Shown: positions 8,716-25,649 of the stretch, one piece after another
Layout: each line of letters starts with the position of its first letter
Numbering within the stretch: the stretch's first letter is position 1
Assembly (NCBI GenBank): GCA_963734995.1
Contig: CAVTJD010000010.1
Coordinates: 81,103 to 145,102 of the forward strand
Length of the DNA stretch: 64,000 nt
Origin: an uncultured Chloroflexia bacterium
GTDB taxonomy: Bacteria; Chloroflexota; Limnocylindria; Limnocylindrales; CSP1-4
Reading direction: 5' to 3'
Position numbers and translations under genes: made by a program
Notes under the pieces: generated by a model
What the model was told of the DNA's origin: nothing
What the model saw: the letters and a program-made list of their open reading frames with translations, nothing else
Database searches by the model: none

Positions 8716-8719
<4 letters not shown>
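7331..8719 (-). CDS. sufD: Fe-S cluster assembly protein SufD
   Basis: There is SufD-family similarity across the ORF. Its ATG 8719 overlaps the sufB stop (ATGA). Confidence 0.85.
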
Positions 8720-10119
<1,400 letters not shown>

Positions 10120-11224: not shown

Positions 11225-12452
11225 CTAGAAGCCCGTCGAGCACCATGGCTCATCAGCGGTTCGCAGCAGCGCGTCGAGCGCGGCGACGGCGCCTGGCCGG
11301 TGCTCGTCCACGCCGGTCCCGACCACGACACGGCCGAGGCGCGCGCCGCCCAGGTACGCGGCGCTCAGGGCGGCGATCGGCAGCGTCAGGTCCGGATCAC
11401 GATCGGTGGATCGGCAGTCCGCGCCGTCCGGTGTGGCATCGAGGACGACCCGCGTCGGGGCCTGTGTCTGCGGATCCACCACCTCGATCACGATCGCGCC
11501 GCTCGTCTCATAGTGACGGGCGGCGAGGGCCCTCGGCACGTCGAACAGCCGGAGCCACATTCCATCGAAGATGTCGGACACGATCGCGGCCCGCTGGTTG
11601 GTCAGCAACCACGGCAGCCGCTCGGACGGGCTGCGACGGACGGCCGCGACCCGGCTCACGAGATCGACCTCCGCCAGGTACCGCCACAGCGCGGCGTAGG
11701 CGTCGCCGGTCAGGGCGTGCAGGTCGTCGACCGTCAGCTCGCTCCGGGGCTGGTTGTGCTCCCAGTTCATGGTCGCGCTGTAGCGGACGTAGCCGTCGAC
11801 CCGACCGTCGTCGTCGCGATGGAGGGCAAGGAATCCATTCCAGCGCGGTCGCCACACGGGGGTCCTGAGCCCGAGCGCGTAGTCCCAGTGCTCGTCGCGT
11901 CGCAAGACCTCGCCCGCCTGCCTGACCCGCCACGAATTCGAACACGGTCTTCAGCACGTCGCGACTGGACGCGTCGGGGAGTACGAGCTCGATGGTGCCC
12001 GTCTGCTCGCCGTGGAACCCGGTAACACCCGCGTCAAGGGTCCACGTGGCCACGCGGCAGGCGGGGCCGTAGCCGAACCGGCCATAGATTGGATACTCCG
12101 ATGCGTACAGGACGGCGAGGGCCTCGTCCGTCTCGCGGATTGCGGCGTGCGCGCTGTCGGCCATCCTGGTCAGGATCCCGCGCCGACGGTGGGTCGGGCT
12201 GACGGTGACCGCCTCCACCGCAGCGGCGGGCAGCTGCCTGCCACCAGGAACGGTGACCTCGGTTCGCCACGACAGGAAGCTGCCGCACACCCGGTCCCCG
12301 TCGAACGCTCCCCAGGTCCGCTCCGGCTCGAACTCGGGGCGGATCTGCTCCACGAACTTGTCGATGTCCGGGCGGTCAAGGAAGGCACTGGAGATGGTCT
12401 CGGCGTAGGCGGCCAGCTCGTCCTCGCGGATCCTGCGTACCTCGATCGTCAT
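11225..12452 (-). pseudogene. Eis-like GNAT acetyltransferase (GNAT-GNAT-SCP2 architecture) split by a frameshift near 11905–11940
   Basis: The N-terminal GNAT part is in frame with ORF 11508..12569, starting at MTIEVRRIRED (12452). The C-terminal part is in the frame of ORF 11225..11905. Together they make about 400 aa, typical of the family. Confidence 0.5.
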
Positions 12453-12779
12453 GTGCCCGACTGTAGCATCGGCCGCCCGACGGGCCCGATGACGGCTGCG
12501 CCCGCCTGAGCCGTTCATCAACGCGCTAAGGTAGGGCAGGTCGAACGTCAGGACGGGGAGGCAGCCCATGCATTCGACCGCCCATGGTCAGCCGTTGCTC
12601 CTGCCCCGGGCATCCGTCGGTCAAGCCCGGGCCGGGCTCCGTGCTCGTCGCAGCGCTCGTGCCCGAGACGCCTGTCCATCGACTCTGTCGGCGGGCGGAC
12701 CACCCTCGCGCGGGGCTGTCCCAAATGGGGTGGTGGTGCGTGCCTGGGGCCGGGTCTCGCTCCAGGCCGGTGTCCCGCG

Positions 12780-14336
12780 ATGATGCGCACCGGGCCGGGC
12801 GGAGCAACGGGCATCGGCGGAGCGCGCCCCGATCACGCCGCGGCGGCGCACACCCTGACCGTGCCCGATGGCACGCTCCTCCTCCACATCGGCCCTCACA
12901 AGACGGGGACGACGTCCCTCCAGCAGGCGATGTACCTGGCGCGCGACGCGATGCTGGCGCAGGGCGTTGCGCAACCCGGGTGGGCCATCAATCCCGTCAG
13001 CGCCGTCAACGCGGTGATCGGACGGGGCTCCAGATCCAGGGGTGGGCGGGTCCCATCGATACGGCTCTGGCATCGTCTGGTCCAGGACGTCAACCGCACG
13101 CGCGAGCCGCGCATGGTGATCAGCAGCGAGACGTTCGCCGACGCGCGCCCGGACGCCATCCGCACCATCGTCGCCGATCTCGGTTCGTCGAGGCTGCACG
13201 TGGTGGTCACGCTCCGGCCACTCGCGCGGATCCTGCCCTCCCAATGGCAGCAGCAGGTTCAGAACGGGATCATCGCCTCGTACGATCACTGGCTCGCCAC
13301 CGTGCTCGACGACCGTTCCGACAGACCGGCCCGGACGTTCTGGTATCGCCACCGTCACGACCACCTGATCAAGCGGTGGGCCGAGGTCGTCGGTCGCCAG
13401 CAGCTGACCGTGGTCGTGCTCGACGATCGCGACCGTGGCCTGCTGTTGCGAAGGTTCGAGCAGCTGCTCGGCCTCGAGGAGGGCTCGCTTCCCCGCCCCA
13501 CCGGCGCCGCGAACCGGTCCCTGTCGCTGTCAGAGGCAGAGGCCATTCGGGCGTTCAACCGGGCATTCAGAGAGCGGCGTCTCAGCGAGGATCTGCATGC
13601 GAAGGTCATGACCTTCGGCGCCGCCCGATACATGAAGCAGCGACCCCATGATCCGTCCGAGCCACGGATCCAGACGCCGCAGTGGGCGCTCGATCGGGTC
13701 GCCGGGATCACGGCCGTGATGGTCGCCAATATCGCGGCCTTCGGCGTCCGGGTCGTCGGCGACCTGACGACCCTGAACCGGGTCCAGAGCCGAACATCCG
13801 ACGATGACCGACGCCCTGCCACGGCGATCCCGCCCGGGACCGCGGCCCGGATGTCCCTGGGGCTCGTCATCGTGTCCGGGCTCGCGCGGGGCCCAGGCGA
13901 CCACGGGCGCGGGAGCGGGCCCGTCCCCGACCGGCCCGGGTCGATCAGCTCAGTGCGCGAGCCGACGGAGCTTGGACACGTGCCCACGTATGTGCTGGCC
14001 GCAGCCGTTGCCTTTCGCGTGCGAGACGCCCTCACCCGACGCATCCGTGCGTTGCGGGGGCGCCGGCTCCGCCGCCCGGGCGGAGCGACGCCGGCGCTGA
14101 TCGCCCGTGTCGGCGGCCGACTGCGCGCCGACCGCACCCAGGGTCCGCGCCCGGTGGCCGCCGGGCGATCTGTCCGGTCGTCCGTGGGAGGCCGCCGGCG
14201 ACACCTGCCGGTGCCACTGATCTCCCGCGCAGCATCCCGAGCGGGCATCATGGTCACGGGCCAGCACGGTCGCGCCGCGCCGGCGAACAGCGGCGATCCG
14301 GGCATCCCGACCACGCACGGGGACACCGAACGGTGA
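12780..14336 (+). CDS. Sulfotransferase-like protein, paralog 1 of 3
   Basis: The N-terminus has HIGPHKTGTTSLQ, which fits the PK[ST]GTT 5'-phosphosulfate-binding loop. TLRPLARILPSQWQQ fits an R-x7-S 3'-phosphate-binding motif. A conserved C-terminal block is shared with the other two paralogs. Confidence 0.5.
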   Translation: MMRTGPGGATGIGGARPDHAAAAHTLTVPDGTLLLHIGPHKTGTTSLQQAMYLARDAMLAQGVAQPGWAINPVSAVNAVIGRGSRSRGGRVPSIRLWHRLVQDVNRTREPRMVISSETFADARPDAIRTIVADLGSSRLHVVVTLRPLARILPSQWQQQVQNGIIASYDHWLATVLDDRSDRPARTFWYRHRHDHLIKRWAEVVGRQQLTVVVLDDRDRGLLLRRFEQLLGLEEGSLPRPTGAANRSLSLSEAEAIRAFNRAFRERRLSEDLHAKVMTFGAARYMKQRPHDPSEPRIQTPQWALDRVAGITAVMVANIAAFGVRVVGDLTTLNRVQSRTSDDDRRPATAIPPGTAARMSLGLVIVSGLARGPGDHGRGSGPVPDRPGSISSVREPTELGHVPTYVLAAAVAFRVRDALTRRIRALRGRRLRRPGGATPALIARVGGRLRADRTQGPRPVAAGRSVRSSVGGRRRHLPVPLISRAASRAGIMVTGQHGRAAPANSGDPGIPTTHGDTER

Positions 14337-15421
14337 CAGCTGACGGCGAGGCGCCGGCTCTCCCGAGAGGCACCCGTGTGCTGCATGTCGGGCCGCCCAA
14401 GACAGGGACGACCGCACTCCAGTCGGCTCTCCACACCGGTCGAGACGCCCTGCTCGCGCACGGGGTTCGTTACGCTGGCCGGGCGCAGCACTCCCGCCGC
14501 GTCGCATACGCGGCCATCAGGCGACCGGAGTACCCACACCTCGACCAGCCGCCGCCGGAGCGACTGTGGCAGGCGTTCGTCACGGACGTGCGCGAGGCGC
14601 CCGAGGCGCGGGTGATCGTCAGCAGCGAGATCTTCACCGACGGTGACGATGACGCGATGCGGCGGGTGGTGAACGATCTCGGCCCGCACCACGTGCACGT
14701 GGTCCTCACCCTGCGTGCACTTCCCCGGATCCTCGCCTCGCAATGGCAGCAGGGCCTCAAGGGTGGCCTGACCCCATCGCTCGATGACTGGCTGCGCGAG
14801 ATCTTCGACGGTGACGGGCCGGTCGCGCGGAGGTTCTGGCGCCGCCACCGCCACGACCGCCTGGTCGCTCACTGGTCCGACGTGGTCGGGTCCGAGAACC
14901 TCACCGTCGTCGTCGTCGACGATCGCGATCACGGGCTGATCCTGCGCGCGTTCGAGCAGCTGCTCGACCTGCGACCAGACACCCTCCGCGGGATCCAGGA
15001 TCGTGAGAACCGGTCGATGACGCTTCCGGAGGCCGAGACGATCCGGGCGTTCAACGTCGCGTTCCGTGGGGCGGGGCTCCGGAGCCGCCGGGCGCACCGG
15101 GTGCGGCAGGCAGTCGTTCGCCGCTACCTTCGATCACGCCGTCCATCGGCGGCCGGGCAACGCATCGAGGCCCCACCCTGGGCCCTCGAGCGAACCGGCG
15201 GTATCGCCGCCGAGATGGTCGCCGCCATCCGGGCCACAGAGGTCAATGTGATCGGTGACCTGGACAGCCTCGCCGCCACCACCGGTCGTGCCTCGAGCAC
15301 GATGACCGCCTCGGCCGCCGTGGGCGAGAGGGTGTCGCTCCCGTGGCGCATGCGTGCCACGCTGGCGTTGCTGCGCGCCACCGAGCCGATCGCACCCAGG
15401 CGACGCGGCCGGGCCACCTGA
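14333..15421 (+). CDS. Sulfotransferase-like protein, paralog 2 of 3
   Basis: It has HVGPPKTGTTALQ and TLRALPRILASQWQQ. Its GTG start overlaps the stop of paralog 1 (GTGA). Confidence 0.5.
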   Translation: MTADGEAPALPRGTRVLHVGPPKTGTTALQSALHTGRDALLAHGVRYAGRAQHSRRVAYAAIRRPEYPHLDQPPPERLWQAFVTDVREAPEARVIVSSEIFTDGDDDAMRRVVNDLGPHHVHVVLTLRALPRILASQWQQGLKGGLTPSLDDWLREIFDGDGPVARRFWRRHRHDRLVAHWSDVVGSENLTVVVVDDRDHGLILRAFEQLLDLRPDTLRGIQDRENRSMTLPEAETIRAFNVAFRGAGLRSRRAHRVRQAVVRRYLRSRRPSAAGQRIEAPPWALERTGGIAAEMVAAIRATEVNVIGDLDSLAATTGRASSTMTASAAVGERVSLPWRMRATLALLRATEPIAPRRRGRAT

Positions 15422-15522
15422 CGAGCAGCACTCCGGCGAGCGGCGTCCAGTCGACCGGCGTCAGTCATCCGTCCCTCCGCCGAGGCGGGCCGCCGGCGAC
15501 CCGTGATCCTGGGCGATCCTGC

Positions 15523-17139
15523 TCAGGGGCCGATCGGACGGTGGAGCATTCGCAGCACCCGCCGTCCGGCCGGGCTGGCGGCCGCCGTCCAGACAACGCC
15601 CGGGAGCCGTCGGGAGCGCAGCGGGCGGGGACCTTGCCACCGAGCGCGACCCATCGCGGGGGCACCATCGACGAACAGGAGCGGGCGGGTCCGCCCGAAG
15701 CCGGCCGACCGACGGACGGGCGTGTCGAACCTGTAGCCCGCGAACAGGATCCGGGTGAGGATGTCCCATCGCCCGGATTGCAGGGCCGAGCCCTCGATGC
15801 CGACGTCCGGATCGATCTCGACCTGCAGCTCGCTGATCAGCCGGATGTGGCCACCGTCCTCGGTCCGCGTTCGCCGCACGGTCGGCCGGAGCACTACCTC
15901 GGCGGAATCGCGGCGACGATGCAGCACGATCAGGGCCTCACCCTCCGCGGATACGGGGATGAGCCGTGTGCCGGGATCCACCGCCGCCGCGACGGCCACC
16001 GGCACCGGCAGCAGCAGCGCGCCGTCGGCCGCCTCGAACCGGACGGGGCGGCCGTCGTTGACGAGCTCGGCTTCGACGTCGAGCAGGACGCGCCGGCCGT
16101 CCAGATGTCGCAGTCCATGGAACCGGACCGCCAGATCCATGGCCAGATCGGACTCGGCGAGTGCAACGAGCAGATCGAGCCGATCGGCGCGGACCAGCGC
16201 GAGCTTGGTGCGAACCTGCGCCGGCAGCGTCGGGTCGACGGTATCCGGGATGTACCGATCGACCACCGATCGGACCTCGCCCAGGAGAACTCGGCGACCT
16301 TCCGGGCTGCTGACCAGGAAACGATGGGTCGTGAAGCGCGACAACAGCTCCCGCTGGGTGAATCGACGCAGCAGACGGTCGCGTGCCGGACCGGGCTCGG
16401 TGTGCGTCTCGACGACCTCGAGGACCTCACGCAGGAAGCGGTAGTACCAGGCGGGATCGAAGCTGCCCGCGGGGTCGTAGGCGCCGCGGCCCGCGTTGCC
16501 TCGATCCTCGCGGGCGAGGTGGTAGTAGCAGGTGTAGTCGGCGAGGATCGAGATGACGCTCGCCGCGAAATAGGCCGTCGCGACGAACACGTGGTCCTCC
16601 AGGCGGCGCCTGCCCTCGGGAAAGCGGATCCCGGTCTCGTCGAGGAAACCCTTCCGGAACATCTTGTGGGGTGACAGCGAGCTCATGATCGGGGCGTCGT
16701 CGACCGTTACCCGGTCGCGGGTCTCGAGGAACAGCATCCGGGGGATGCCGCGTCCGTGTCCGGCCATCTTGCCGATCACGATGTCGGAGCCGTTCCTCTC
16801 GGCAAACGCATACATCCGCTCCAGGGCCTCGGACCCCAGGACGTCATCGTGGTCCACGAAATACAGGTACTTGCCGCGCGCCGCGTCGATCCCCACGTTG
16901 CGCGGCTTCCCCGGCCAGCCGGAGTTGGGTTGGTGGATGACCCGAATGTTCGGATGGGCGACCGCGAGCGCGTCAAGCTCCGCCGGCGACTCGTCCGTCG
17001 AGCCGTCGTCGACGAAGATCGCCTCGAACTCGTCCTGGGGCAGCGACTGCCCGACGATCGAATCCGTGCACCGTCGCAGGTACTTCCCGGGGTTGTAGAC
17101 GGGCACGATCACCGACACCTTGGGCTGCGTCAGCGGCAT
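15523..17139 (-). CDS. GT2-family (GT-A fold) glycosyltransferase with a C-terminal extension of about 280 aa of unknown function
   Basis: SVIVPVYNPGKYL...FVDDGSTDESP...FVDHDD is a classic GT2 N-terminus with a DxD motif. Confidence 0.8.
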   Translation of the reverse strand: MPLTQPKVSVIVPVYNPGKYLRRCTDSIVGQSLPQDEFEAIFVDDGSTDESPAELDALAVAHPNIRVIHQPNSGWPGKPRNVGIDAARGKYLYFVDHDDVLGSEALERMYAFAERNGSDIVIGKMAGHGRGIPRMLFLETRDRVTVDDAPIMSSLSPHKMFRKGFLDETGIRFPEGRRRLEDHVFVATAYFAASVISILADYTCYYHLAREDRGNAGRGAYDPAGSFDPAWYYRFLREVLEVVETHTEPGPARDRLLRRFTQRELLSRFTTHRFLVSSPEGRRVLLGEVRSVVDRYIPDTVDPTLPAQVRTKLALVRADRLDLLVALAESDLAMDLAVRFHGLRHLDGRRVLLDVEAELVNDGRPVRFEAADGALLLPVPVAVAAAVDPGTRLIPVSAEGEALIVLHRRRDSAEVVLRPTVRRTRTEDGGHIRLISELQVEIDPDVGIEGSALQSGRWDILTRILFAGYRFDTPVRRSAGFGRTRPLLFVDGAPAMGRARWQGPRPLRSRRLPGVVWTAAASPAGRRVLRMLHRPIGP

Positions 17140-17273
17140 GGCTTGACCACCTGGTGCGAGATCGTGTGCCCCATCGCGCGTCCCATCATGGGGCCAGAGT
17201 ATCGAGCCGTCCGGCGGCCGGCGCCGAGAGCGCCGGTATCATCTGAGCAGCTCCAGCGATCCGAAGAGGATGC

Positions 17274-18533
17274 ATGGCGATCCGATCACCCGTCGACGCG
17301 AGCGCACGCCCCCTCCCGGTAGGGACACGGCTGGTGCACATAGGGCCACCGAAGACCGGCACGTCGTCCCTGCAGGGAGCATTCCACGCGTGTCGCGCCG
17401 CCACGGAGGCGCAGGGCGTCCACTACGCGGGTCGGCGCCGACACTCGGGCAGCGCCGTCCACGCCATATCGGGCCGGCCCGGCTTCTTCACCGGCGACGC
17501 CCCGCCGCCGATCTCCCTGTGGCGAGAGCTGGTCTCGGACGCGCGGCGGTCGAAGGCAGATCGGGTGGTGATCAGCAGCGAGTTCTTCGCCGACGCGCTG
17601 CCGGACGTGCTGCCCCGTATCGTCGACGACCTCGGCGGGCCGCGGGTCCAGGTGGTCGTCACCCTTCGGCCGCTCGCGACGATCGTTCCCTCACAGTGGC
17701 AGCAGTACGTACAGAGCAACATGCGCGCGTCGTACGACCGGTGGCTGAAGGCGATGCTCGTCGGGCCGGCGGGCAAGCTCACGCCGACGTTCTGGCGGCG
17801 ACATCGGCATGACCAGCTGATCGCCCGATGGGCGGAGGTCGTCGGTCCGGACCGGGTGACGGTGATCGCGCTCGACGATCGAGACCACACGCTGGTGCTG
17901 CGCATGTTCGAGCGGCTGACCGGCCTGCGTGAGGGCACGCTGGCAGCTCCGCCCGAGGTTGCGAACCGGTCGATGACACTGCCCGAGATCGAGGCCGTCC
18001 GCGCCTTCAATGTGGAGTTCAAGGCGGAGGGCTTCGGCTCGGCGCTCCAGAGCAAGGTCATGCACTTCGGGGCGGCGAGCTACATGCGGCGACGCCAGCC
18101 GGCTGCCGATGAGCCGCGACTCGAGACCCCCCGGTGGGCGCTCGACCGCCTCCGGCCGATCGCTCGTGAGATCGTCGACAACATCGCCGCGTCGGGTGTG
18201 CACGTGATCGGCGACCTTGAGGCCCTCTCGGTGGTCCCCGACGAGGGCCCGGAAGGCGACCCGGCGGCGGCTGTGGCCGTCTCACCCGAGATCGCAGCCT
18301 CGATGGCGATGGGCGTGCTGTACGCGAGCGACCTGGCGCGCCGATCGGACCCGTCGAAGGCCGGATCGGGCCGGATGGCCGGCATGTCACGCTTGATCCC
18401 GGTGTTCAGCGAGCCGCTCGAGACCGCACGCCTGCCGACCGAGCAGCTGGTGGGGATCGTTCTCCGGCGCGGGCGTGTCGCGGCCGCCCGACAATGGCAG
18501 CGCCTGACTCGGCGACGCTCGACATCGCGGTGA
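17274..18533 (+). CDS. Sulfotransferase-like protein, paralog 3 of 3
   Basis: It has HIGPPKTGTSSLQ and TLRPLATIVPSQWQQ. A GAAGAGGA RBS sits 3 nt upstream of ATG 17274. Confidence 0.5.
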   Translation: MAIRSPVDASARPLPVGTRLVHIGPPKTGTSSLQGAFHACRAATEAQGVHYAGRRRHSGSAVHAISGRPGFFTGDAPPPISLWRELVSDARRSKADRVVISSEFFADALPDVLPRIVDDLGGPRVQVVVTLRPLATIVPSQWQQYVQSNMRASYDRWLKAMLVGPAGKLTPTFWRRHRHDQLIARWAEVVGPDRVTVIALDDRDHTLVLRMFERLTGLREGTLAAPPEVANRSMTLPEIEAVRAFNVEFKAEGFGSALQSKVMHFGAASYMRRRQPAADEPRLETPRWALDRLRPIAREIVDNIAASGVHVIGDLEALSVVPDEGPEGDPAAAVAVSPEIAASMAMGVLYASDLARRSDPSKAGSGRMAGMSRLIPVFSEPLETARLPTEQLVGIVLRRGRVAAARQWQRLTRRRSTSR

Positions 18534-18596: not shown

Positions 18597-19637
18597 TCAG
18601 CGGCCGGCCACCTCACCCGATCTCATTCGTGCCCGGTCGCCCGCGGTGGCCGCGTCGAGCCGGGAGCGAATCTCGCGAACGGCATCGGCGACGTCCACGC
18701 TCGACGCGTCGATCACGACGTCCGCGTCATCGGGCGTCTCGTAGGGCGATGAGATCCCGGTGAACTCCGGGACCTCGCCCGCGCGGGCACGCGCATACAG
18801 ACCCTTCCGGTCGCGCGCCTCGCACACCTCGAGTGGGGTGCTGACGTGGACCAGGAGGAACGCTCCGTGCGGCTCGGCCATGGCGCGGGCGGCGCGCCGA
18901 CCTGCGGCAAACGGGGCGATCGGCGCCGCGATCGCGATCCCGCCGTGCGCGGCGATGAGCGCCGCGACCCACGCGATGCGATCGATGTTGGCGGCACGAG
19001 ATTCGGCATCGAACCCGAGGCCGCGCGACAGGTGCTGCCGCACCTCGTCGCCGTCCAGGAGCGTCACGCGCCTGGGGTCCTCGTCGGCAAGCTCATCGGA
19101 CAGCGCCCTGGCGATGGTCGACTTTCCCGATCCCGACAACCCGGTGAAGAACACGACGGCACCCTGCTCGGGAGCCGCCCGCAGCGCCTGCAGGACCTCC
19201 CGCGCCGAGGCCGGCGGGTACAGCTCGTCGACCTCGCGCTCGAGCACGCCGGCGAGCGCCCTGATCCGATCCAGCTCATCACGGCTGCGCAGCTCGGTAA
19301 CCCGCGTCGACATGCCCACGCCTGCGGTCGCGAGGAGAGGCCCGAGCTCGACCGTGTCCCGTGGTGGCCATGGCAGCACGAGCCGGATCACCGTCCGCGC
19401 CAGGCCGCCGGTCGCAACGGCCTGGGCGAGGTGATCGGCGACCGCCCAGGCGGCCCGCGTCACGCCGGCGCTGCCCACGAGACCTCGAGGCTGCCGGCGG
19501 CGCGCGACAGGGACCACGACCAGGATCGTGTCCTCGCGCGCGCCACCTGCCGCCGCCAGCAGCGTCTCCTCGTCCGCGCGCGTCGGCACATCGTCGATGA
19601 CCAATGCCAGCGTCCCGCTCGCGGCCCGGGCGGTCAT
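18597..19637 (-). CDS. cysC: Adenylyl-sulfate (APS) kinase with an N-terminal extension of about 165 aa of unknown function
   Basis: The C-terminal roughly 180 aa has the P-loop FFTGLSGSGKSTIA and APS-kinase blocks. The start is uncertain: an ATG at 19637 was chosen, and the ORF stays open to 20123 through a repeat-encoded Arg/Pro-rich stretch. Confidence 0.75.
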   Translation of the reverse strand: MTARAASGTLALVIDDVPTRADEETLLAAAGGAREDTILVVVPVARRRQPRGLVGSAGVTRAAWAVADHLAQAVATGGLARTVIRLVLPWPPRDTVELGPLLATAGVGMSTRVTELRSRDELDRIRALAGVLEREVDELYPPASAREVLQALRAAPEQGAVVFFTGLSGSGKSTIARALSDELADEDPRRVTLLDGDEVRQHLSRGLGFDAESRAANIDRIAWVAALIAAHGGIAIAAPIAPFAAGRRAARAMAEPHGAFLLVHVSTPLEVCEARDRKGLYARARAGEVPEFTGISSPYETPDDADVVIDASSVDVADAVREIRSRLDAATAGDRARMRSGEVAGR

Positions 19638-19804
19638 GGCCAAGACGGCCTCGAGTGGCAGCCGGACGCCCGGGTCCCAGTGGGGGCCAGACCCACGCGA
19701 GAGCGGGCGCAGCGGCGTGAGCGTCGGTTCGGTGCCGGTCGTGGCGTGGACGTGCGCCACGGGGCTGTTCTCCGCATCGGTCAGCACGAGGTCCGAACCG
19801 CTGC

Positions 19805-19955
19805 CGGGCGCGCCGGGCAGGGCGAGCGCCCCGGGCTGAACGGACGCGTCGGGCACGCCGGGCTGACGGGCGACGGCGCGCCGGGCTGGACGGGCGCGCC
19901 GGGCTGGACGGGCGCGCCGGGCAGGGCGGGCGCCCCGGGCAGGGCGGACACCGGC
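19805..19955. repeat. 18-bp tandem repeats (ggcgcgccgggctggacg / gggcgccccgggcaggg variants) between the TauE-like gene and cysC
   Basis: Read directly. In the cysC frame it translates to the RPARRARPARRA low-complexity stretch. Confidence 0.7.
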
Positions 19956-20088
19956 ACCCAGCCGCCCAGCGCGAGGTCGAGCAGGTCCAACCCGTCGTCG
20001 TCCAGGACGAGCCGCGGCACGTCGGTCAGATGGGCCAGGCTCTCCGGCTCGGCCGGATCCATCGGGTCGTCGGACGTACCGGGCGTGG

Positions 20089-21045
20089 TCACGGCGACCG
20101 CGGGTCCGTCTCGAGGCGCCCATCCTCGCTGTGCCGGCCGGCCGCCGACGGTGGTCGCCGGGTCACGCGGTCGCGAATGATCCGCCACGCGACGAACGCG
20201 AACAGGACGGCCGCCGCCGAGCTCGCCAGCACCACGACGTTGGGCGCGCCCAGCAGCTTGAGGCCCGAGGCCATCAGGAGCACGGCCAGGATGCGCCGGA
20301 TGATCCCGCCCGGCGCGCGGCTCGAGATCTGGGCGCCGATCCATGCCCCCGGGATGGCTCCGAGCAGGATCGAGGAGGCGACCGACAGCGAGAACGCACC
20401 GAACATCAGGTGCCCGATCGCGGCCGCCCCGACCAGCGGGATCGCCTGCGCGAGATCTGTCCCGACCAGCGAGGACGCCTTGAGCCGCGGGTACATCAAC
20501 AGCAGCGTGACGACGATGATCGATCCGGCACCCACGGACGTGAGCCCGACCATGAGACCCGCCGTGGCGCCGAGGATCACGGTCGGAACCGGTCGCACGA
20601 CCACCGCCGGTGGCTGGGTGGGGCGCGCCGGACCCTCACCCAGCGGCAACCGGTTGCGCCACATCTGGAGCGCGGCGCGCACGAACAGCCCGGCGGTGGC
20701 CAGGAGGAGCGCCAGCCCCAGCAGCTGCTGCAGGATCGCATCCAGATCCGCGTCGTGGGGTACCAGCGAGATCAGCCAGGCACCGGAGAACGCCGCCGGA
20801 ACGGATCCGAGGCACAGCCATCCGACCAGCCGCAGGTTGACGGTCCCGCGACGCAGGTGGACGAACGCGCCGACCGGCTTCATGAACAGGCTGGCGACGA
20901 TATCGCTCGAGATCGCTGTCAGGGGATTGACCCCGAACACGAACACGAGCATCGGGGTCATGAGCGCCCCGCCGCCCATCCCGGTCAGGCCCACAACGAT
21001 GCCGACGACCAGGCCGCCGAGGGCCAGCGGGAGGTCGAGGGTCAC
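20089..21045 (-). CDS. TauE/SafE-family (DUF81) anion permease
   Basis: It carries the GxGGG signature (GLTGMGGGALMTPMLV) with duplicated 4-TM halves. A GTG start at 21045 was chosen, with an alternative TTG near 21090. Confidence 0.7.
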   Translation of the reverse strand: MTLDLPLALGGLVVGIVVGLTGMGGGALMTPMLVFVFGVNPLTAISSDIVASLFMKPVGAFVHLRRGTVNLRLVGWLCLGSVPAAFSGAWLISLVPHDADLDAILQQLLGLALLLATAGLFVRAALQMWRNRLPLGEGPARPTQPPAVVVRPVPTVILGATAGLMVGLTSVGAGSIIVVTLLLMYPRLKASSLVGTDLAQAIPLVGAAAIGHLMFGAFSLSVASSILLGAIPGAWIGAQISSRAPGGIIRRILAVLLMASGLKLLGAPNVVVLASSAAAVLFAFVAWRIIRDRVTRRPPSAAGRHSEDGRLETDPRSP

Positions 21046-21214
21046 GCCAACCGTGGCGTACGGCGCCTGGCGGGCATGCGAACCATGCAGCGATGATAAC
21101 TTCGACGCCAACTGAGATCGCGGATCGGCCGACCGGTCCTCGGCCCCGAACGAGCCGCGATCCGACCATGCCCCGGAGCCCGCAGCGAGGCGCAGTGAAG
21201 ACCGTCGACGTCCG

Positions 21215-22075
21215 GTGACGATCCATGCCCCCCACGACATGTCCGTGATGGACGACGGGCGGCTGGCGGCCGCCCTCGCGTCCGGAGCAGCCGAGACCCT
21301 GATGCAGCTGCGCGCGGATGCCGACGCGGGCCGGGTCGACACCCGGACGACCGGGCTTCGCGACGCGGGCGATGCCGGTGCGCAGGCCTGGCTGGCACGA
21401 GCGCTGGCCGAGGCTCGCCCGACGGACGCGGTGCTGTCCGAGGAGGCCGTCGACGACCGCCGACGCCTGACCGCCGAGCGCGTCTGGATCATCGATCCGC
21501 TCGACGGCACTCGCGAGTTCGCCGAGCGTACCGAGGAAGGCGGCTGGCGCGATGACTTCGCGGTGCACGTCGCGCTCTGGCAGCGAGGACGCGGGCTGAC
21601 CGACGCAGCGGTAGCGCTCCCGGCCCGGGGCATCGTCCGCGGGACCGGATCGACCGCGAACATCGGCCCTGCCCCCGCCGAGACCGACGACGAAGGTGTG
21701 CTCGCAGGCCGTCGCCCGATGCGGATCGCCGTCAGCCGCACCCGGCCCCCGTCGATCGCGGCCCGCCTCGTCGAGCGGGGCGTCGCGGAGCTCGTGCCGA
21801 TGGGGTCGTGCGGCGTCAAGACGCTGAGCGTCCTGGACGGCACGGTCGATGCCTACGTCCACGCCGGCGGCCAGTACGAGTGGGATTCGGCGGCACCGGT
21901 GGCCGTCGTCCGCGCCGCGGGGATCGTGGCCACCCGTCTCGACGGATCCGAGATCGCGTACAACCAGCCCGATCCCTGGTCGCCCGACCTGCTGATCTGC
22001 CGGCCCGGGCTGACGGATCACCTGCATGAGCTGCTGGTCGCCGCCGGGCTCGGCACCGAGGGATCCGAGACATGA
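21215..22075 (+). CDS. cysQ: 3'(2'),5'-bisphosphate nucleotidase, CysQ/inositol-monophosphatase family
   Basis: It has the IMPase metal-binding motif WIIDPLDGTREF and a WDSAAP block. Its stop overlaps the cysD start (ATGA). Confidence 0.7.
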   Translation: MTIHAPHDMSVMDDGRLAAALASGAAETLMQLRADADAGRVDTRTTGLRDAGDAGAQAWLARALAEARPTDAVLSEEAVDDRRRLTAERVWIIDPLDGTREFAERTEEGGWRDDFAVHVALWQRGRGLTDAAVALPARGIVRGTGSTANIGPAPAETDDEGVLAGRRPMRIAVSRTRPPSIAARLVERGVAELVPMGSCGVKTLSVLDGTVDAYVHAGGQYEWDSAAPVAVVRAAGIVATRLDGSEIAYNQPDPWSPDLLICRPGLTDHLHELLVAAGLGTEGSET

Positions 22076-22983
22076 CACCCCTGGTCCACCACGGGCTCAG
22101 CCAGCTCCGCAGCCTCGAGGCCGAGAGCATCCACATCTTTCGGGAGGTGGCTGCCGAGATGCAGAAGCCGTGCCTCCTGTTCTCTGGCGGCAAGGACTCG
22201 ATCACGATGCTCCACATCGCGCGCAAGGCGTTCGCGCCCGCGCGCATCCCGTTCCCCGTGATGCACGTGGACACCGGGCTCAACTTTCCGTCGATCCTCG
22301 CCTACCGCGACGGCTGGATCGAGAAGCTGGGCCTCAAGCTCGTGGTCGCCTCGGTCGAGGACGCGATGCGCCGGGGGCTGGTGAAGGAAGAGCCCAATGG
22401 CTCGCGCAACCGGATCCAGACCCCGGTCCTGCTCGAGGCGGCGGAGCAGAACGGCTTCGACGCCCTGTTCGGGGGCGGCCGGCGGGACGAGGAGAAGGCC
22501 CGCGCCAAGGAGCGCGTGTTCTCGTTCCGCGACGAGTTCGGCCAATGGGACCCGAAGAACCAGCGTCCCGAGATCTGGTCGCTGTACAACGGCCGCGTGT
22601 TCCCGGGCCAGAGCATCCGCGTGTTCCCGCTGTCCAACTGGACCGAGCTCGATGTCTGGACCTACATCCGCGAAGAGTCGATCGAGATCCCCGACCTGTA
22701 CCTGGCGGCCGACCGCGAGGTCGTCGAGCGCGGTGGCATGCTGTACGCGGTCAACCCGTTCATCGTCCCGCGCGACGGCGAGCCCGTGCAGGTCCGGCGT
22801 GTCCGGTATCGCACGGTCGGCGACGCGAACCTGACCGCGGCCGTGGAGTCGGACGCGGACACCGTCGACAAGATCGTGGCCGAGATCGCGGCCGTCCGGA
22901 TCACCGAGCGCGGCGCCACTCGCGGCGACGACAAGGTGAGCGAGGCGGCCATGGAAGACCGCAAGAAGGAGGGGTATTTCTGA
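22072..22983 (+). CDS. cysD: Sulfate adenylyltransferase subunit 2 (CysD)
   Basis: It has the PAPS-reductase-like fold with SGGKDS and full-length CysD conservation. Confidence 0.95.
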   Translation: MTPLVHHGLSQLRSLEAESIHIFREVAAEMQKPCLLFSGGKDSITMLHIARKAFAPARIPFPVMHVDTGLNFPSILAYRDGWIEKLGLKLVVASVEDAMRRGLVKEEPNGSRNRIQTPVLLEAAEQNGFDALFGGGRRDEEKARAKERVFSFRDEFGQWDPKNQRPEIWSLYNGRVFPGQSIRVFPLSNWTELDVWTYIREESIEIPDLYLAADREVVERGGMLYAVNPFIVPRDGEPVQVRRVRYRTVGDANLTAAVESDADTVDKIVAEIAAVRITERGATRGDDKVSEAAMEDRKKEGYF

Positions 22984-24251
22984 TGCCCGGCGAGCTCCTC
23001 CGATTCGCCACGGCCGGGTCCGTCGACGATGGCAAGAGCACGCTCATCGGTCGCCTGCTGTACGACTCCAAGTCGCTGTTCATCGATCAGCTGGCGGCGG
23101 TCGAGCAGGTCAGCCGCGACCGGGGCGACGACTACACCGATCTCGCGCTGCTGACCGACGGGCTCCGCGCTGAGCGGGAGCAGGGCATCACGATCGACGT
23201 CGCCTACCGGTACTTCGCGACACCCCGGCGGAAGTTCATCATCGCCGACACGCCCGGGCACACGCAGTACACCCGGAACATGGTGACCGGGGCCTCGACC
23301 GCCGACGTGGCGCTGATCCTGCTCGATGCGCGCAAGGGGATCACCGAGCAGAGCCGCCGGCACGCGTTCCTGGCCACGTTGCTGGGCGTGCCCCACCTCG
23401 TGATCTGCGTCAACAAGATGGACCTGGTCGACTTCTCCGAGGCGCGGTTCGACGAGATCCGCGGGGAGTTCGAGGAGTTCGCGACGCGGCTGCGCGTCCG
23501 CGACATGACCTTCATCCCGATCTCGGCGCTTCTGGGCGACAACGTCGTGACCCGCTCCGACCGGACGCCGTGGTACGACGGCTCGCCGCTCCTCAGCCAC
23601 CTCGAGCGGCTGCACGTCGCGAGCGACCGCAACTTCATCGACGTCCGGTTCCCGGTGCAGTACGTGGTTCGGCCCCAGTCGTTCGAGGTGATCGACTATC
23701 GCGGCTACGCGGGCACCGTGGCCTCGGGTGTGCTCAAGCCGGGCGACCAGGTGCTCGCGCTGCCCAGCGGCATGGAGACCACGATCGCGTCCATCGACAC
23801 CGCCGACGGCCCGGTGGCCGAGGCATTCCCGCCGATGGCGGTCACGGTCACCCTCACCGACGACATCGACCTCAGCCGCGGCGACATGCTGTGCCGCCCG
23901 CACAACGTGCCCAACGTTGCCCAGGACATCGACGCCCAGATCTGCTGGATGGATGAGAGCGCGCCGCTCACGGTCGGGCGTAAGTACGCGATCAAGCACA
24001 CCACCCGCTGGGCCAGGGTCCTGGTCAAGGCGCTCGAGTACCGCATCGACGTGAACACGCTCCACCGCGACGAGCAGGCGACCGAGCTCAGCCTCAACGA
24101 GATCGGGCGCGTTCAGCTGCGCTCGACGCAGCCGTTGTTCGTGGATGCCTACGTCGAGAACCGGCAGACCGGCGCGTTCATCCTGGCCGACGAGAGCACC
24201 AACCGGACGGTCGCGGCGGGCATGATCGGACGCCAGCCTGGGGGTTACTGA
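22983..24251 (+). CDS. cysN: Sulfate adenylyltransferase subunit 1 (CysN GTPase)
   Basis: The G1 motif GSVDDGKST, G3 DTPGH and G4 NKMD are present. Its ATG overlaps the cysD stop (ATGA). Confidence 0.9.
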   Translation: MPGELLRFATAGSVDDGKSTLIGRLLYDSKSLFIDQLAAVEQVSRDRGDDYTDLALLTDGLRAEREQGITIDVAYRYFATPRRKFIIADTPGHTQYTRNMVTGASTADVALILLDARKGITEQSRRHAFLATLLGVPHLVICVNKMDLVDFSEARFDEIRGEFEEFATRLRVRDMTFIPISALLGDNVVTRSDRTPWYDGSPLLSHLERLHVASDRNFIDVRFPVQYVVRPQSFEVIDYRGYAGTVASGVLKPGDQVLALPSGMETTIASIDTADGPVAEAFPPMAVTVTLTDDIDLSRGDMLCRPHNVPNVAQDIDAQICWMDESAPLTVGRKYAIKHTTRWARVLVKALEYRIDVNTLHRDEQATELSLNEIGRVQLRSTQPLFVDAYVENRQTGAFILADESTNRTVAAGMIGRQPGGY

Positions 24252-24340
24252 GCGGATCCCCGCGCCTGGGGCCGCCAGCCGGCGGCCTACTGAGCGGATC
24301 CCCGCGCCTGGGGCGCCCGACCCGGCTGGGCGCCGCAACG
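24235..24340. repeat. Tandem duplication (unit about 45 bp, 2 copies) that includes the last codons and stop codon of cysN (…tactgagcggatccccgcgcctgggg…)
   Basis: Read directly. Confidence 0.8.
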
Positions 24341-24371: not shown

Positions 24372-25649
24372 CTACAGCCGGGGCCGCACCGCCTTCCGGA
24401 GCGTGCGGTGCCGGGCAGTCGCCGGCAGCGACGTGCGGCGCAGCCCGGCGAACTCACGGTGGGCACGCAGCGCGGCGGCGAACGCGGCCACGAACGCCCC
24501 GTCGCCGGCCGCCAGCGGGTCGAAGCCCGGTTCCCACCACAGGCCGACCACGCGCAGCGTGCTCGATGCCCGGTCGAACCGCGGCTCGATCCGACCCACG
24601 AACCGGTCCCCGTACAGGACCGGCAGGACGTAGTAGCCGAAGCGGCGCTTCGCGGCCGGGACGTACACCTCCCACCGGTAGTCGAAGCCCCATAGCCTCG
24701 AGAGCAGATCCCGATCCCAGACCAGCGGGTCGAGCGGCGCCACGAACGTCACGCCCGGCTCCTGGCCCCCCGGGCGAGGCGGCGCCGCCGTTTCCGCCTC
24801 GGCCGCCACCTCGATCCCGGCGGCGTCGAGCAGCGGCAGCTCGTCGGTCACCACGAATCTGGGGCCACGCAGCCCCTCGACCTCGATCGCGGTGATCTGG
24901 CCCGACTCGACCAGGCCGTCGTGCACGACCCGCCGCTCGGGCGCCTTGCCCAGGCCCATCCATAGCGTGTAGTCACCGGTCGCCCCGAGCAGGCCGTTCC
25001 CCCGGTATCGCGACAGCAGCTTGTGTCGCAGCTGCTCCTCGGCCCGGACGTCGCGGGCCAGCAGGTCCGACGGAAACAATCGCTCGGTGAGGTCGTACAC
25101 CCGGCGATTGCCCTCACGCCGGGCGATCGCGAGGATGCCGGCCTCGGCCAGCGCCTCGAGCAGCGCCCGGACCTGGTTGGTCGGCCGCCAGTACCAGTCG
25201 ATCGCCGCGCGCGGCTCGACATCGGTGGACGACAGCGGCCCGTCGGCACGGATCCGGTCGAGGAGCTCCTCAACGAGCGGCGCATGCTCATCGAACGCCC
25301 CGCCGCGGTGCTCCTCGTGGGCCCGGTCCCAGGTGATCCGGTACCACGGCAGCTCGGCGGTGGGCACGAGCGACATCTGCTTGTTGTACGTCTCGTACAG
25401 GACACGGTCGCCGTACAGCAGCTGATCGGTCCAGGAACGCCGGTAGCCGTCGATCCGCGCCAGCAGGGTCAGGTCGTGGTTCCGGCCGGCCACCTCGAGC
25501 GGATCGAACTGCAGCGATCCCAGGCGGTCGACGACCCGCATCACCGACGCCGGCTCGGCGGCCAGTGAGCGCGGCGGAGCGAGCAGGTGGCGCCGGACGA
25601 GGAAGCGCCGCGCAGTCGCGGCGGAGATCCGGCGTGCGGGCGGGCTCAC
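24372..25649 (-). CDS. Winged-helix DNA-binding domain protein (DUF1006/YcaQ/AlkZ-like family)
   Basis: Its length and motifs (…GNRRVYDL…, PRFVVTDELPLLD, FGYYVLPVLYGDRFVGRIE) resemble the HTH_42 family. Confidence 0.55.
   Translation of the reverse strand: MSPPARRISAATARRFLVRRHLLAPPRSLAAEPASVMRVVDRLGSLQFDPLEVAGRNHDLTLLARIDGYRRSWTDQLLYGDRVLYETYNKQMSLVPTAELPWYRITWDRAHEEHRGGAFDEHAPLVEELLDRIRADGPLSSTDVEPRAAIDWYWRPTNQVRALLEALAEAGILAIARREGNRRVYDLTERLFPSDLLARDVRAEEQLRHKLLSRYRGNGLLGATGDYTLWMGLGKAPERRVVHDGLVESGQITAIEVEGLRGPRFVVTDELPLLDAAGIEVAAEAETAAPPRPGGQEPGVTFVAPLDPLVWDRDLLSRLWGFDYRWEVYVPAAKRRFGYYVLPVLYGDRFVGRIEPRFDRASSTLRVVGLWWEPGFDPLAAGDGAFVAAFAAALRAHREFAGLRRTSLPATARHRTLRKAVRPRL

Follow-up and report, generated by a model that had tools for sequence, protein, structure and literature searches.

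The analysis presented here indicates that three paralogous genes in a 64,000-nucleotide (nt) stretch of DNA from an uncultured Chloroflexia bacterium (order Limnocylindrales; contig CAVTJD010000010.1 of assembly GCA_963734995.1) encode cytoplasmic sulfotransferases, which depend on 3'-phosphoadenosine-5'-phosphosulfate (PAPS) and belong to a divergent, uncharacterised family. We put the probability of this reading at about 0.8. The whole stretch, with a G+C content of about 70%, is called "the window" below. The homology of the three proteins to sulfotransferases rests on fold, motifs and genomic context, and not on sequence or profile methods. From the observed paralogy, motifs, fold matches and synteny we infer that the paralogs bind PAPS and use it in catalysis. 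An uncharacterised sulfotransferase clade had already been suggested by a first-pass annotation of the window, and the suggestion is supported by the fold, the motifs and the adjoining PAPS genes.

Conserved motifs of the three paralogs

The three genes and their principal motifs are located as follows (positions are those of the window).

12780-14336, plus strand: paralog 1, open reading frame (ORF) of 518 amino acids (aa); core and family C-terminus extend to about 14060
14333-15421, plus strand: paralog 2, ORF of 362 aa, GTG start
17274-18533, plus strand: paralog 3, ORF of 419 aa, the most consensus-like copy
12885-12914, plus strand: putative 5'-phosphosulfate-binding (PSB) loop HIGPHKTGTT of paralog 1, aa 36-45
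14384-14413, plus strand: putative PSB loop HVGPPKTGTT of paralog 2, aa 18-27
17337-17366, plus strand: putative PSB loop HIGPPKTGTS of paralog 3, aa 22-31
13209-13253, plus strand: putative 3'-phosphate-binding (3'PB) motif of paralog 1, TLRPLARILPSQWQQ; R146-x7-S154, TLR-x7-SQWQQ at aa 144-158
14708-14752, plus strand: putative 3'PB motif of paralog 2, TLRALPRILASQWQQ; R128-x7-S136, TLR-x7-SQWQQ at aa 126-140
17661-17705, plus strand: putative 3'PB motif of paralog 3, TLRPLATIVPSQWQQ; R132-x7-S140, TLR-x7-SQWQQ at aa 130-144
17574-17582, plus strand: SSE motif of paralog 3, containing E103

Multiple alignment gives 44-48% identity among the three proteins over their whole common length, with 100+ invariant columns, and confirms the paralogy that had been proposed from the letters of the DNA. 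The unusual size ascribed to them, 360-520 aa, agrees with the ORF lengths above. The G+C content at third codon positions (GC3) of the three genes, 0.84-0.86, fits coding sequence and is typical for the window. Every motif that the first-pass annotation claimed for the three proteins was located in its place, including the conserved C-terminal block, whose first part, NRS..L.E.E..RAFN, occupies aa 245-260, 226-241 and 231-246 of paralogs 1, 2 and 3, and whose second part, P.WAL[DE]R, occupies aa 300-306, 281-287 and 286-292, respectively. Three further blocks absent from that annotation, SSE, FW.RHRHD and DDRD, are common to the paralogs. In the six-frame translation of the window K[ST]GT[TS] is matched exactly three times, once in each paralog, which excludes a chance origin of these matches.

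Two details of the earlier description have to be adjusted. The R-x7-S spacing is exact, but the Arg lies 105 residues past the PSB Lys and not about 120. The three genes do share one strand, yet the arrangement is not strictly tandem, as a minus-strand glycosyltransferase gene of TarS-like type separates paralogs 2 and 3.

Predicted fold and putative PAPS site

AlphaFold2 models of paralogs 2 and 3 were built on family alignments and compared with the Protein Data Bank (PDB) by Foldseek. The model of paralog 3 has a predicted local distance difference test score (pLDDT) of 85.7 and a predicted template modelling score (pTM) of 0.82, that of paralog 2 has 88.9 and 0.87. The overall alpha/beta fold of both is closest to solved sulfotransferases, and the best match of both, each time at probability 1.00, is 3rnl, a sulfotransferase from Alicyclobacillus, with E = 6.5e-6 for paralog 3 and E = 2.1e-4 for paralog 2 (template modelling score, TM, 0.65 on the target and 0.47 on the query). 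The second and third ranks of paralog 3 are held, both at probability 1.00, by the heparan sulfate 3-O-sulfotransferases 3-OST-1 in complex with 3'-phosphoadenosine-5'-phosphate (PAP) and a heptasaccharide (E = 2.4e-4) and 3-OST-5 with PAP (E = 5.3e-4); at lower ranks many cytosolic sulfotransferases (SULTs) are mixed with GTPases of the signal recognition particle (SRP) type. In the case of paralog 2, SRP GTPases, the tyrosylprotein sulfotransferase TPST1 and other sulfotransferases come next. By sequence, 3rnl is related to 3-OST-1 (phmmer E = 1.3e-7), and carbohydrate sulfotransferases of the heparan-sulfate type are therefore the nearest solved structures. A different fold had been named as the outcome that would speak against sulfotransferases; both models favor the sulfotransferase fold and match P-loop NTPases only more weakly.

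The PAPS site of sulfotransferases is marked by a PSB strand-loop-helix with conserved Lys and Gly, and by a strand-turn-helix at the 3'-phosphate whose strand ends in an Arg and whose helix carries a conserved Ser (PMC11625862). In both models the loop with the Lys joins the first strand (19-23 in paralog 3, 15-19 in paralog 2) to the first helix (30-39 and 26-35, respectively). The R-x7-S motif spans strand 125-131 and helix 134-147 in paralog 3, strand 121-128 and helix 130-143 in paralog 2. The identity assigned to the two motifs is thus supported, since both sit on the same elements as in PAPS-dependent sulfotransferases. Conservation was followed in two family alignments and their profiles, A2 with 38 members and A3 with 102. 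K, T, G and T of the PSB loop are at least 90% conserved in the 102 homologues. S140 reaches the same level and R132 does not vary; across 38-102 homologues Lys27, Thr28, Gly29, Thr30, Glu103, Arg132, Ser140 and Asn231-Arg232-Ser233 are all invariant or at least 90% conserved.

Glu103 of the SSE motif is invariant in the 102 family members and stands at the end of strand 97-102 of the paralog 3 model, a position that we take to resemble that of His108 in cytosolic SULTs. It is a plausible candidate for the catalytic base. A third PAPS-contacting segment of known enzymes reads SKGR... in 3-OSTs and RKG... in SULTs, and the NRS...RAFN block is probably this canonical segment together with its following helix. 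If so, what the family has added of its own is a helical region of about 80-100 aa past approximately residue 255 and a basic C-terminal helix. None of the paralogs has a transmembrane anchor (maximal 18-residue hydrophobicity at most 0.57), and their expected place of action is therefore the cytoplasm, the site of PAPS synthesis. The C-terminal helix of paralog 3 is basic and amphipathic (hydrophobic moment, muH, 0.60), and such a helix may bring the paralogs to the membrane.

Sequence and profile searches

The three paralogs have no Pfam match above threshold, and the only sub-threshold one is to Sulfotransfer_4 (PF17784). Paralog 2 scores 16.9 bits (E = 0.0057; aa 15-84 aligned to model positions 1-67) and paralog 3 scores 11.9 bits (aa 21-149 to model positions 3-115, a match that covers both PAPS motifs); paralog 1 gives no match, and the whole-protein gathering threshold of 22.8 bits is reached by none of the three. 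The same model is the sole recurrent Pfam signal of the family, seen in 9 of 38 members and, at E <= 0.1, in 17 of 102, with a best E of 7.8e-5. Stray matches of the Sulfotransfer_1 and Sulfotransfer_3 type occur in one A2 member each (E = 0.09-0.29, n = 38), and Sulfotransfer_3 is matched by two A3 members (best E = 0.043, n = 102). Searches for the heparan-sulfate-type sulfotransferases (Sulfotransfer_1 and Sulfotransfer_3; 3-OST, N-deacetylase/N-sulfotransferase (NDST), NodH) gave no significant sequence or profile match, and NCBIfam gave nothing for any of the three paralogs.

Searches of PDB sequences were likewise negative: phmmer with paralog 2 found no match, and hmmsearch with the A2 and A3 profiles returned only noise (short-chain dehydrogenases/reductases (SDR), armadillo repeats, S15). 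Alignment of the family profile by hhalign to 3-OST-1 alone or to a 3-sequence profile was not significant (probability 0.3%, E = 0.18 with the 3-OST profile; the 3-OST-1 and 3-OST-5 sequences were taken from PDB alignments). The local alignments are structurally sensible though not significant: TLRPLARILPSQWQQ is paired with the 3'PB segment ILRDPSERVLSDYTQ of 3-OST, and the core strand VTVVV.D (VTVVVLDD) with IHIVDGD. In a profile search of 1.84 billion representatives the top 150 matches were close family members only, with no bridge to annotated sulfotransferases.

Sulfate activation genes next to the paralogs

The neighbouring genes are the following.

15523-17139, minus strand: family 2 glycosyltransferase (GT2) with TarS linker, 538 aa; Pfam Glycos_transf_2 1.7e-32, TarS_linker 1.1e-27
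18597-20062, minus strand: kinase of adenosine-5'-phosphosulfate (APS), CysC; Pfam APS_kinase 1.1e-55, NCBIfam apsK
20089-21240, minus strand: TauE/SafE-family membrane protein; Pfam TauE 1.3e-43, start ATG 21240 or TTG 21111
21215-22075, plus strand: CysQ-like 3'(2'),5'-bisphosphate nucleotidase; Pfam Inositol_P 1.4e-30, NCBIfam bisphos_cysQ best but below cutoff
22072-22983, plus strand: CysD, sulfate adenylyltransferase subunit 2; Pfam PAPS_reduct 4.2e-39
22986-24251, plus strand: CysN, sulfate adenylyltransferase GTPase subunit; Pfam GTP_EFTU and GTP-eEF1A_C

The genes for the APS kinase, the TauE-type protein and the CysQ-like, CysD and CysN proteins follow the paralogs directly downstream in this order; cysQ and cysD overlap by 4 nt and cysD and cysN are 2 nt apart. 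The TauE-type protein is a likely sulfate uptake protein. Since it adjoins CysDN, the APS kinase and the CysQ-like enzyme, the locus encodes likely uptake of sulfate, its activation to PAPS and the removal of PAP. Such a supply of PAPS and disposal of PAP fits three PAPS-consuming enzymes, and this context is independent of the evidence used by the first-pass annotation.

The association is seen in other genomes too. Relatives were collected by a scan of one genome per species, and synteny was counted in 58 loci longer than 15 kb. Beside the family CysD is found in 48 of these 58 loci, CysN in 45, TauE in 41, the N-terminal domain of the APS kinase in 40 and CysQ in 38. CysD of the window is 80-95% identical to the proteins next to family members in other loci.

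The N-terminal domain of the APS kinase (about 250 aa; 19170-20062, minus strand) has no Pfam or NCBIfam match; it may represent a sulfurylase-like domain that has degenerated and possibly serves in regulation. Its beginning, PRLVLDDDGLD.LELA.GGW.P, recalls the N-terminus of ATP sulfurylase. The first 60 or so residues of the kinase (MDPAEPESLAHLTDVPRLVLDDDGLDLLDLALGGW...PGAPVQPGAP) lie in another frame than the remainder, and the frame switches inside an 18-nt tandem repeat (19803-19947, 8.2 copies) that encodes PGAPxQ or ARPARR, depending on the frame. The switch could stem from an indel in the assembly, from a genuine frameshift or from variation in repeat length. On the other side of the array an Eis-like acetyltransferase of the GNAT superfamily (11225-12569, minus strand; Acetyltransf_9, Acetyltransf_17 and SCP2_2) is likewise read in two frames, split near 11940. 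An intact 372-aa orthologue in the closest relative matches 12344-11937 and, in the other frame, 11950-11228, and the split reflects a frameshift or else an indel in the assembly. In 24 of the 58 loci this acetyltransferase is conserved as a divergent neighbour of the array.

Some further features of the surroundings were recorded. The end of cysN carries a 42-nt direct repeat (24231-24314, 2 copies, 90% match), located before a convergent gene for an AlkZ-like DNA glycosylase (24372-25649). The iron-sulfur assembly genes sufB/sufD (8716-10119 of the window, minus strand) adjoin the sulfation locus in many genomes of the Limnocylindria type, SufB being present in 27 of 58 loci at 89-99% identity. 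An alpha-amylase-family gene stands between sufB and the acetyltransferase gene in the gene tables of two relatives, L001 and L078/L079; it is absent from the window.

The tail of paralog 1 and its overlap with paralog 2

Paralog 1 had been credited with an additional low-complexity tail of about 170 aa. Only the last 90 or so residues (about 14060-14336), rich in Arg, Gly and Pro, are unique to it; the other 80 or so, a low-confidence disordered linker followed by an Arg-rich basic C-terminal helix, are common to paralog 3 and the family consensus. In the two closest relatives paralog 1 has orthologues of 428 and 412 aa, and a spacer of 200-260 nt comes after them. The tblastn similarity to relatives stops at 14036, and the DNA past this point is unconserved. 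The extension may therefore be a read-through of a stop-poor, GC-rich spacer, although the exact 518-aa product is present in a public collection, where gene callers recorded it. The GTGA overlap, from which translational coupling of paralogs 1 and 2 had been proposed, is present in the sequence (stop TGA at 14334-14336, GTG from 14333), but the coupling itself is doubtful because the unique tail may be spacer read-through. A start of paralog 2 on the 5' side of GTG 14333 was considered and rejected: the frame is open upstream but has no start codon.

Distribution of the family

The scan found 483 relatives of the family. Most come from metagenome-assembled genomes (MAGs) of Chloroflexota (Limnocylindria/Limnocylindrales or uncultured Chloroflexia), and a few belong to Actinomycetota, namely Microbacterium, Mumia, Aeromicrobium and Nocardioidaceae. 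The profile search of 1.84 billion representatives collected 12,986 clusters at 50% identity with E <= 1e-3 and 1,506 with E <= 1e-30. Some family proteins of about 760-850 aa (P0121-P0125) look like two-copy fusions, since each has two matched stretches, the best-scoring one in the C-terminal half. The database names are mostly "hypothetical protein", with the exception of a UniRef entry from Mumia, "Sulfotransferase family protein". In the literature on this family, on sulfotransferases of Limnocylindria and Chloroflexota and on sulfated wall polymers of Microbacteriaceae we found no description of the family.

Copies of the gene form arrays of 1-6 per locus. For paralog 2 a clear orthologue, 69% identical, was found only in the closest relative, L001, and most copies elsewhere are paralog-3-like; with copy number so variable, conserved orthologous roles of the three copies across the family were rejected. 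In the relative L078 the TarS-like GT2 gene is co-directional with three paralogs. The context in Mumia and Aeromicrobium was set aside as uninformative, having housekeeping neighbours and no PAPS genes within 10 kb.

The most instructive locus outside Chloroflexota belongs to the isolate Microbacterium sp. KR10-403 (L043), whose genome carries a family member in a cassette with CysC-like, TauE, CysQ, CysD and CysN proteins. The cassette lies inside a wall-polymer cluster, whose genes encode a TarIJ-like fusion of IspD and SDR that resembles CDP-ribitol synthase, a glycerol/ribitol-phosphotransferase of TagF-like type, a GT2 with TarS linker, RmlA, RmlB and RmlC-D (RmlCD). A canonical Sulfotransfer_2 protein (PF03567; L043 9004-9744, minus strand) is encoded immediately beside the family member. 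CysD and CysN of KR10-403 are 79-81% identical to those of the window, which suggests that the cassette passed as a whole from one phylum to another by horizontal transfer.

Proposed function

According to the mechanism that we propose, sulfate would enter the cell, probably via the TauE-type permease, would be adenylylated by CysD/CysN to APS, and APS would be phosphorylated by the APS kinase to PAPS. A paralog would then hold PAPS with Lys and Thr of GP[PH]KTGT[TS] on the 5'-phosphosulfate and with Arg132 and Ser140 of TLR-x7-S on the 3'-phosphate, and would transfer the sulfuryl group in line to an acceptor hydroxyl (or amine), Glu103 being the likely base. The inhibitory PAP would be hydrolysed by the CysQ-like phosphatase, which is translationally coupled to cysDN, and several paralogs would sulfate different positions or sugars. 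The acceptor is the least secure part of this scheme. The TarS-like GT2 in the window and the teichoic-acid/rhamnose cluster of KR10-403 point to a lipid-linked wall glycopolymer, teichoic-acid-like or rhamnose-containing, built on the cytoplasmic face of the membrane; we propose it tentatively and would rate its chances somewhat below even.

A number of observations weigh against the reading as a whole or against parts of it. No sequence or profile method reaches significance versus curated sulfotransferase models or solved structures. The Foldseek matches have modest TM scores, 0.35-0.47 for the query and 0.54-0.65 for the target, and their root-mean-square deviations are large; P-loop GTPases are among the matches at E of about 4e-3. 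In the one local alignment obtained neither Glu nor His stands opposite the catalytic Glu of 3-OST-1 (in EVHFFD); it pairs with a conserved Gly, so that the base would lie elsewhere than in 3-OST-1. The synteny counts overstate independence, since most of the 58 loci are from related Chloroflexota, and four actinobacterial loci longer than 15 kb (L069, L071, L072, L073) have no match to the PAPS proteins of the window within 10 kb, Pfam scans of L071 and L072 giving housekeeping neighbours only. Only 5 of the 58 loci have the GT2/TarS gene, and no genes for polymer export, a flippase or a ligase were found in the window locus. Finally, the frame switch in the APS kinase gene points to possible damage of the locus.

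It could be argued that the proteins are P-loop nucleotide kinases or NTPases in which the PKTGTT match is coincidental, as the Foldseek matches with E of 4e-3 to 7e-2 also include SRP/FtsY GTPases, F1-ATPase subunits, O-phosphoseryl-tRNA kinase and thymidylate kinase. However, the conserved loop, G-P-[PH]-K-T-G-T-[TS], does not follow the Walker A pattern GxxxxGK[ST]: its Lys comes before the second Gly, and thus the PSB loop is not a Walker A motif. The top match of both models is a sulfotransferase, R-x7-S occupies the strand-helix that binds the 3'-phosphate in such enzymes, the sole recurrent Pfam signal is Sulfotransfer_4, and the products of the neighbour genes synthesize PAPS and degrade PAP. 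Sulfotransferases and nucleotide kinases have related folds, and the weaker NTPase matches reflect this kinship rather than NTPase identity; we give the NTPase alternative next to no credence. It is also very unlikely that the paralogs are tyrosine sulfotransferases of the RaxST/TPST type acting on a secreted peptide or protein. Human TPST1 does appear at rank 3 for paralog 2 (E = 4.7e-3) and at E = 2.2e-2 for paralog 3, and RaxST in Xanthomonas depends on dedicated cysDN/cysC homologues. Yet carbohydrate sulfotransferases give the stronger structural matches, sulfation of a glycan at several sites accords better with arrays of 1-6 paralogs, and no precursor peptide, peptidase-containing exporter or secretion genes were noticed at the locus, where small ORFs were not specifically searched.

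More weight has to be given to genuine sulfotransferases with a lipid or small molecule as acceptor, for instance a glycolipid, a menaquinone-type lipid or a secondary metabolite; sulfation of a menaquinone-type lipid has a precedent in the mycobacterial Stf enzymes. Fifty-three of the 58 loci have no glycosyltransferase beside the array, the conserved Eis-like neighbour is in keeping with such an acceptor, and the basic amphipathic helix at the end of proteins that lack a transmembrane segment would be appropriate for an enzyme attached peripherally to the membrane. Against this, the window locus and the relatives examined contain no polyketide, lipid or RiPP (ribosomally synthesized and post-translationally modified peptide) biosynthesis genes, and the only informative context outside Chloroflexota is the teichoic-acid/rhamnose wall-polymer cluster. 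We consider a lipid or small-molecule acceptor rather unlikely, though worth keeping in view. Decay is the remaining alternative: one or more copies, be it the odd-tailed paralog 1 or the fast-evolving paralog 2, might be non-catalytic in a partly pseudogenised locus. The frame switches in two neighbours, the unconserved extension of paralog 1 and the restriction of clear paralog 2 orthologues to a single relative would fit such a course. But all three copies keep every invariant residue of the family in intact frames of family length with GC3 typical of coding sequence, and indels in the assembly may account for the frame switches (the closest relatives appear to be long-read MAGs). We hold decay to be improbable.

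Relation to known sulfotransferases

The closest solved protein, the Alicyclobacillus acidocaldarius sulfotransferase 3rnl, is a structural-genomics entry with TM of 0.57-0.65 on the target. It is bacterial and cytoplasmic, as are the paralogs, but it shares only 14-18% sequence identity with them and has no detectable sequence-level match, and at about 310 aa it is shorter than the present family (360-420 aa), which has the extra helical region and the basic C-terminal helix. The structures of 3-OST-1 and 3-OST-5 (3uan, 1zrh, 3bd9) and of the N-sulfotransferase domain of NDST hold ranks 2, 3 and 10 for paralog 3. The likeness to 3-OSTs extends to the 3'PB segment, to the last core strand and to the PSB Lys followed by G-T. 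The differences are a profile-profile probability below 1%, the conserved Gly opposite the catalytic Glu in the local alignment, and the location of 3-OSTs in the eukaryotic Golgi, in contrast to the bacterial and cytoplasmic proteins described here. Among curated models Sulfotransfer_4 alone touches the family recurrently, with the paralogs below its gathering score.

Mycobacterial Stf0-Stf3 and rhizobial NodH are cytoplasmic enzymes that modify glycolipids of the envelope and require dedicated cysDN/cysC and CysQ. As bacterial PAPS-dependent sulfotransferases of glycolipids or lipids they resemble the proteins proposed here (PMC11625862). Stf0 is placed in PF00685 and NodH in PF13469 (PMC11625862), whereas the present family is in no curated Pfam family. 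A parallel of a different kind is offered by Pontimonas salivibrio (Microbacteriaceae), in which a horizontally acquired cassette of sulfate-activation and sulfotransferase genes has been proposed, without biochemical proof, to sulfate wall components (PMC6106888). The likeness concerns only the logic of the cassette, namely that cysDN/cysC-type genes are kept with PAPS-dependent sulfotransferases for wall modification and not for sulfur assimilation; the Microbacterium genome carries a member of the present family in just such a cassette.

Implications

PAPS-dependent sulfotransferases from bacteria are small in number and their annotation is poor, and the curated models are biased to animal enzymes (PMC11625862). 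Here we describe a divergent, unannotated family inside a well-known enzyme superfamily, situated in a coherent sulfation locus and expected to follow conventional chemistry. Recognition of this family would allow many genomes of Chloroflexota and Actinomycetota to be annotated better, and new regiospecific carbohydrate sulfotransferases would be of biotechnological value.

A broader and frankly speculative proposal, which we hold to be rather unlikely as it stands, is that a portable cassette for wall sulfation, made up of a permease, CysDN, the APS kinase, CysQ and 1-6 paralogs, has the family as its catalytic core and places sulfate esters on teichoic-acid-like or rhamnose-containing wall polymers of monoderm Chloroflexota (Limnocylindria) and some Actinomycetota. 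If it were true, the cassette would give abundant oligotrophic bacteria of soil and freshwater a sulfate-based anionic wall, possibly sparing phosphate, and the pattern of sulfation would be determined by how many paralogs are present. The cultured carrier, Microbacterium sp. KR10-403, makes the prediction of wall sulfation directly testable, and the family as a whole would point to sulfated envelope polymers in lineages for which none have been described.

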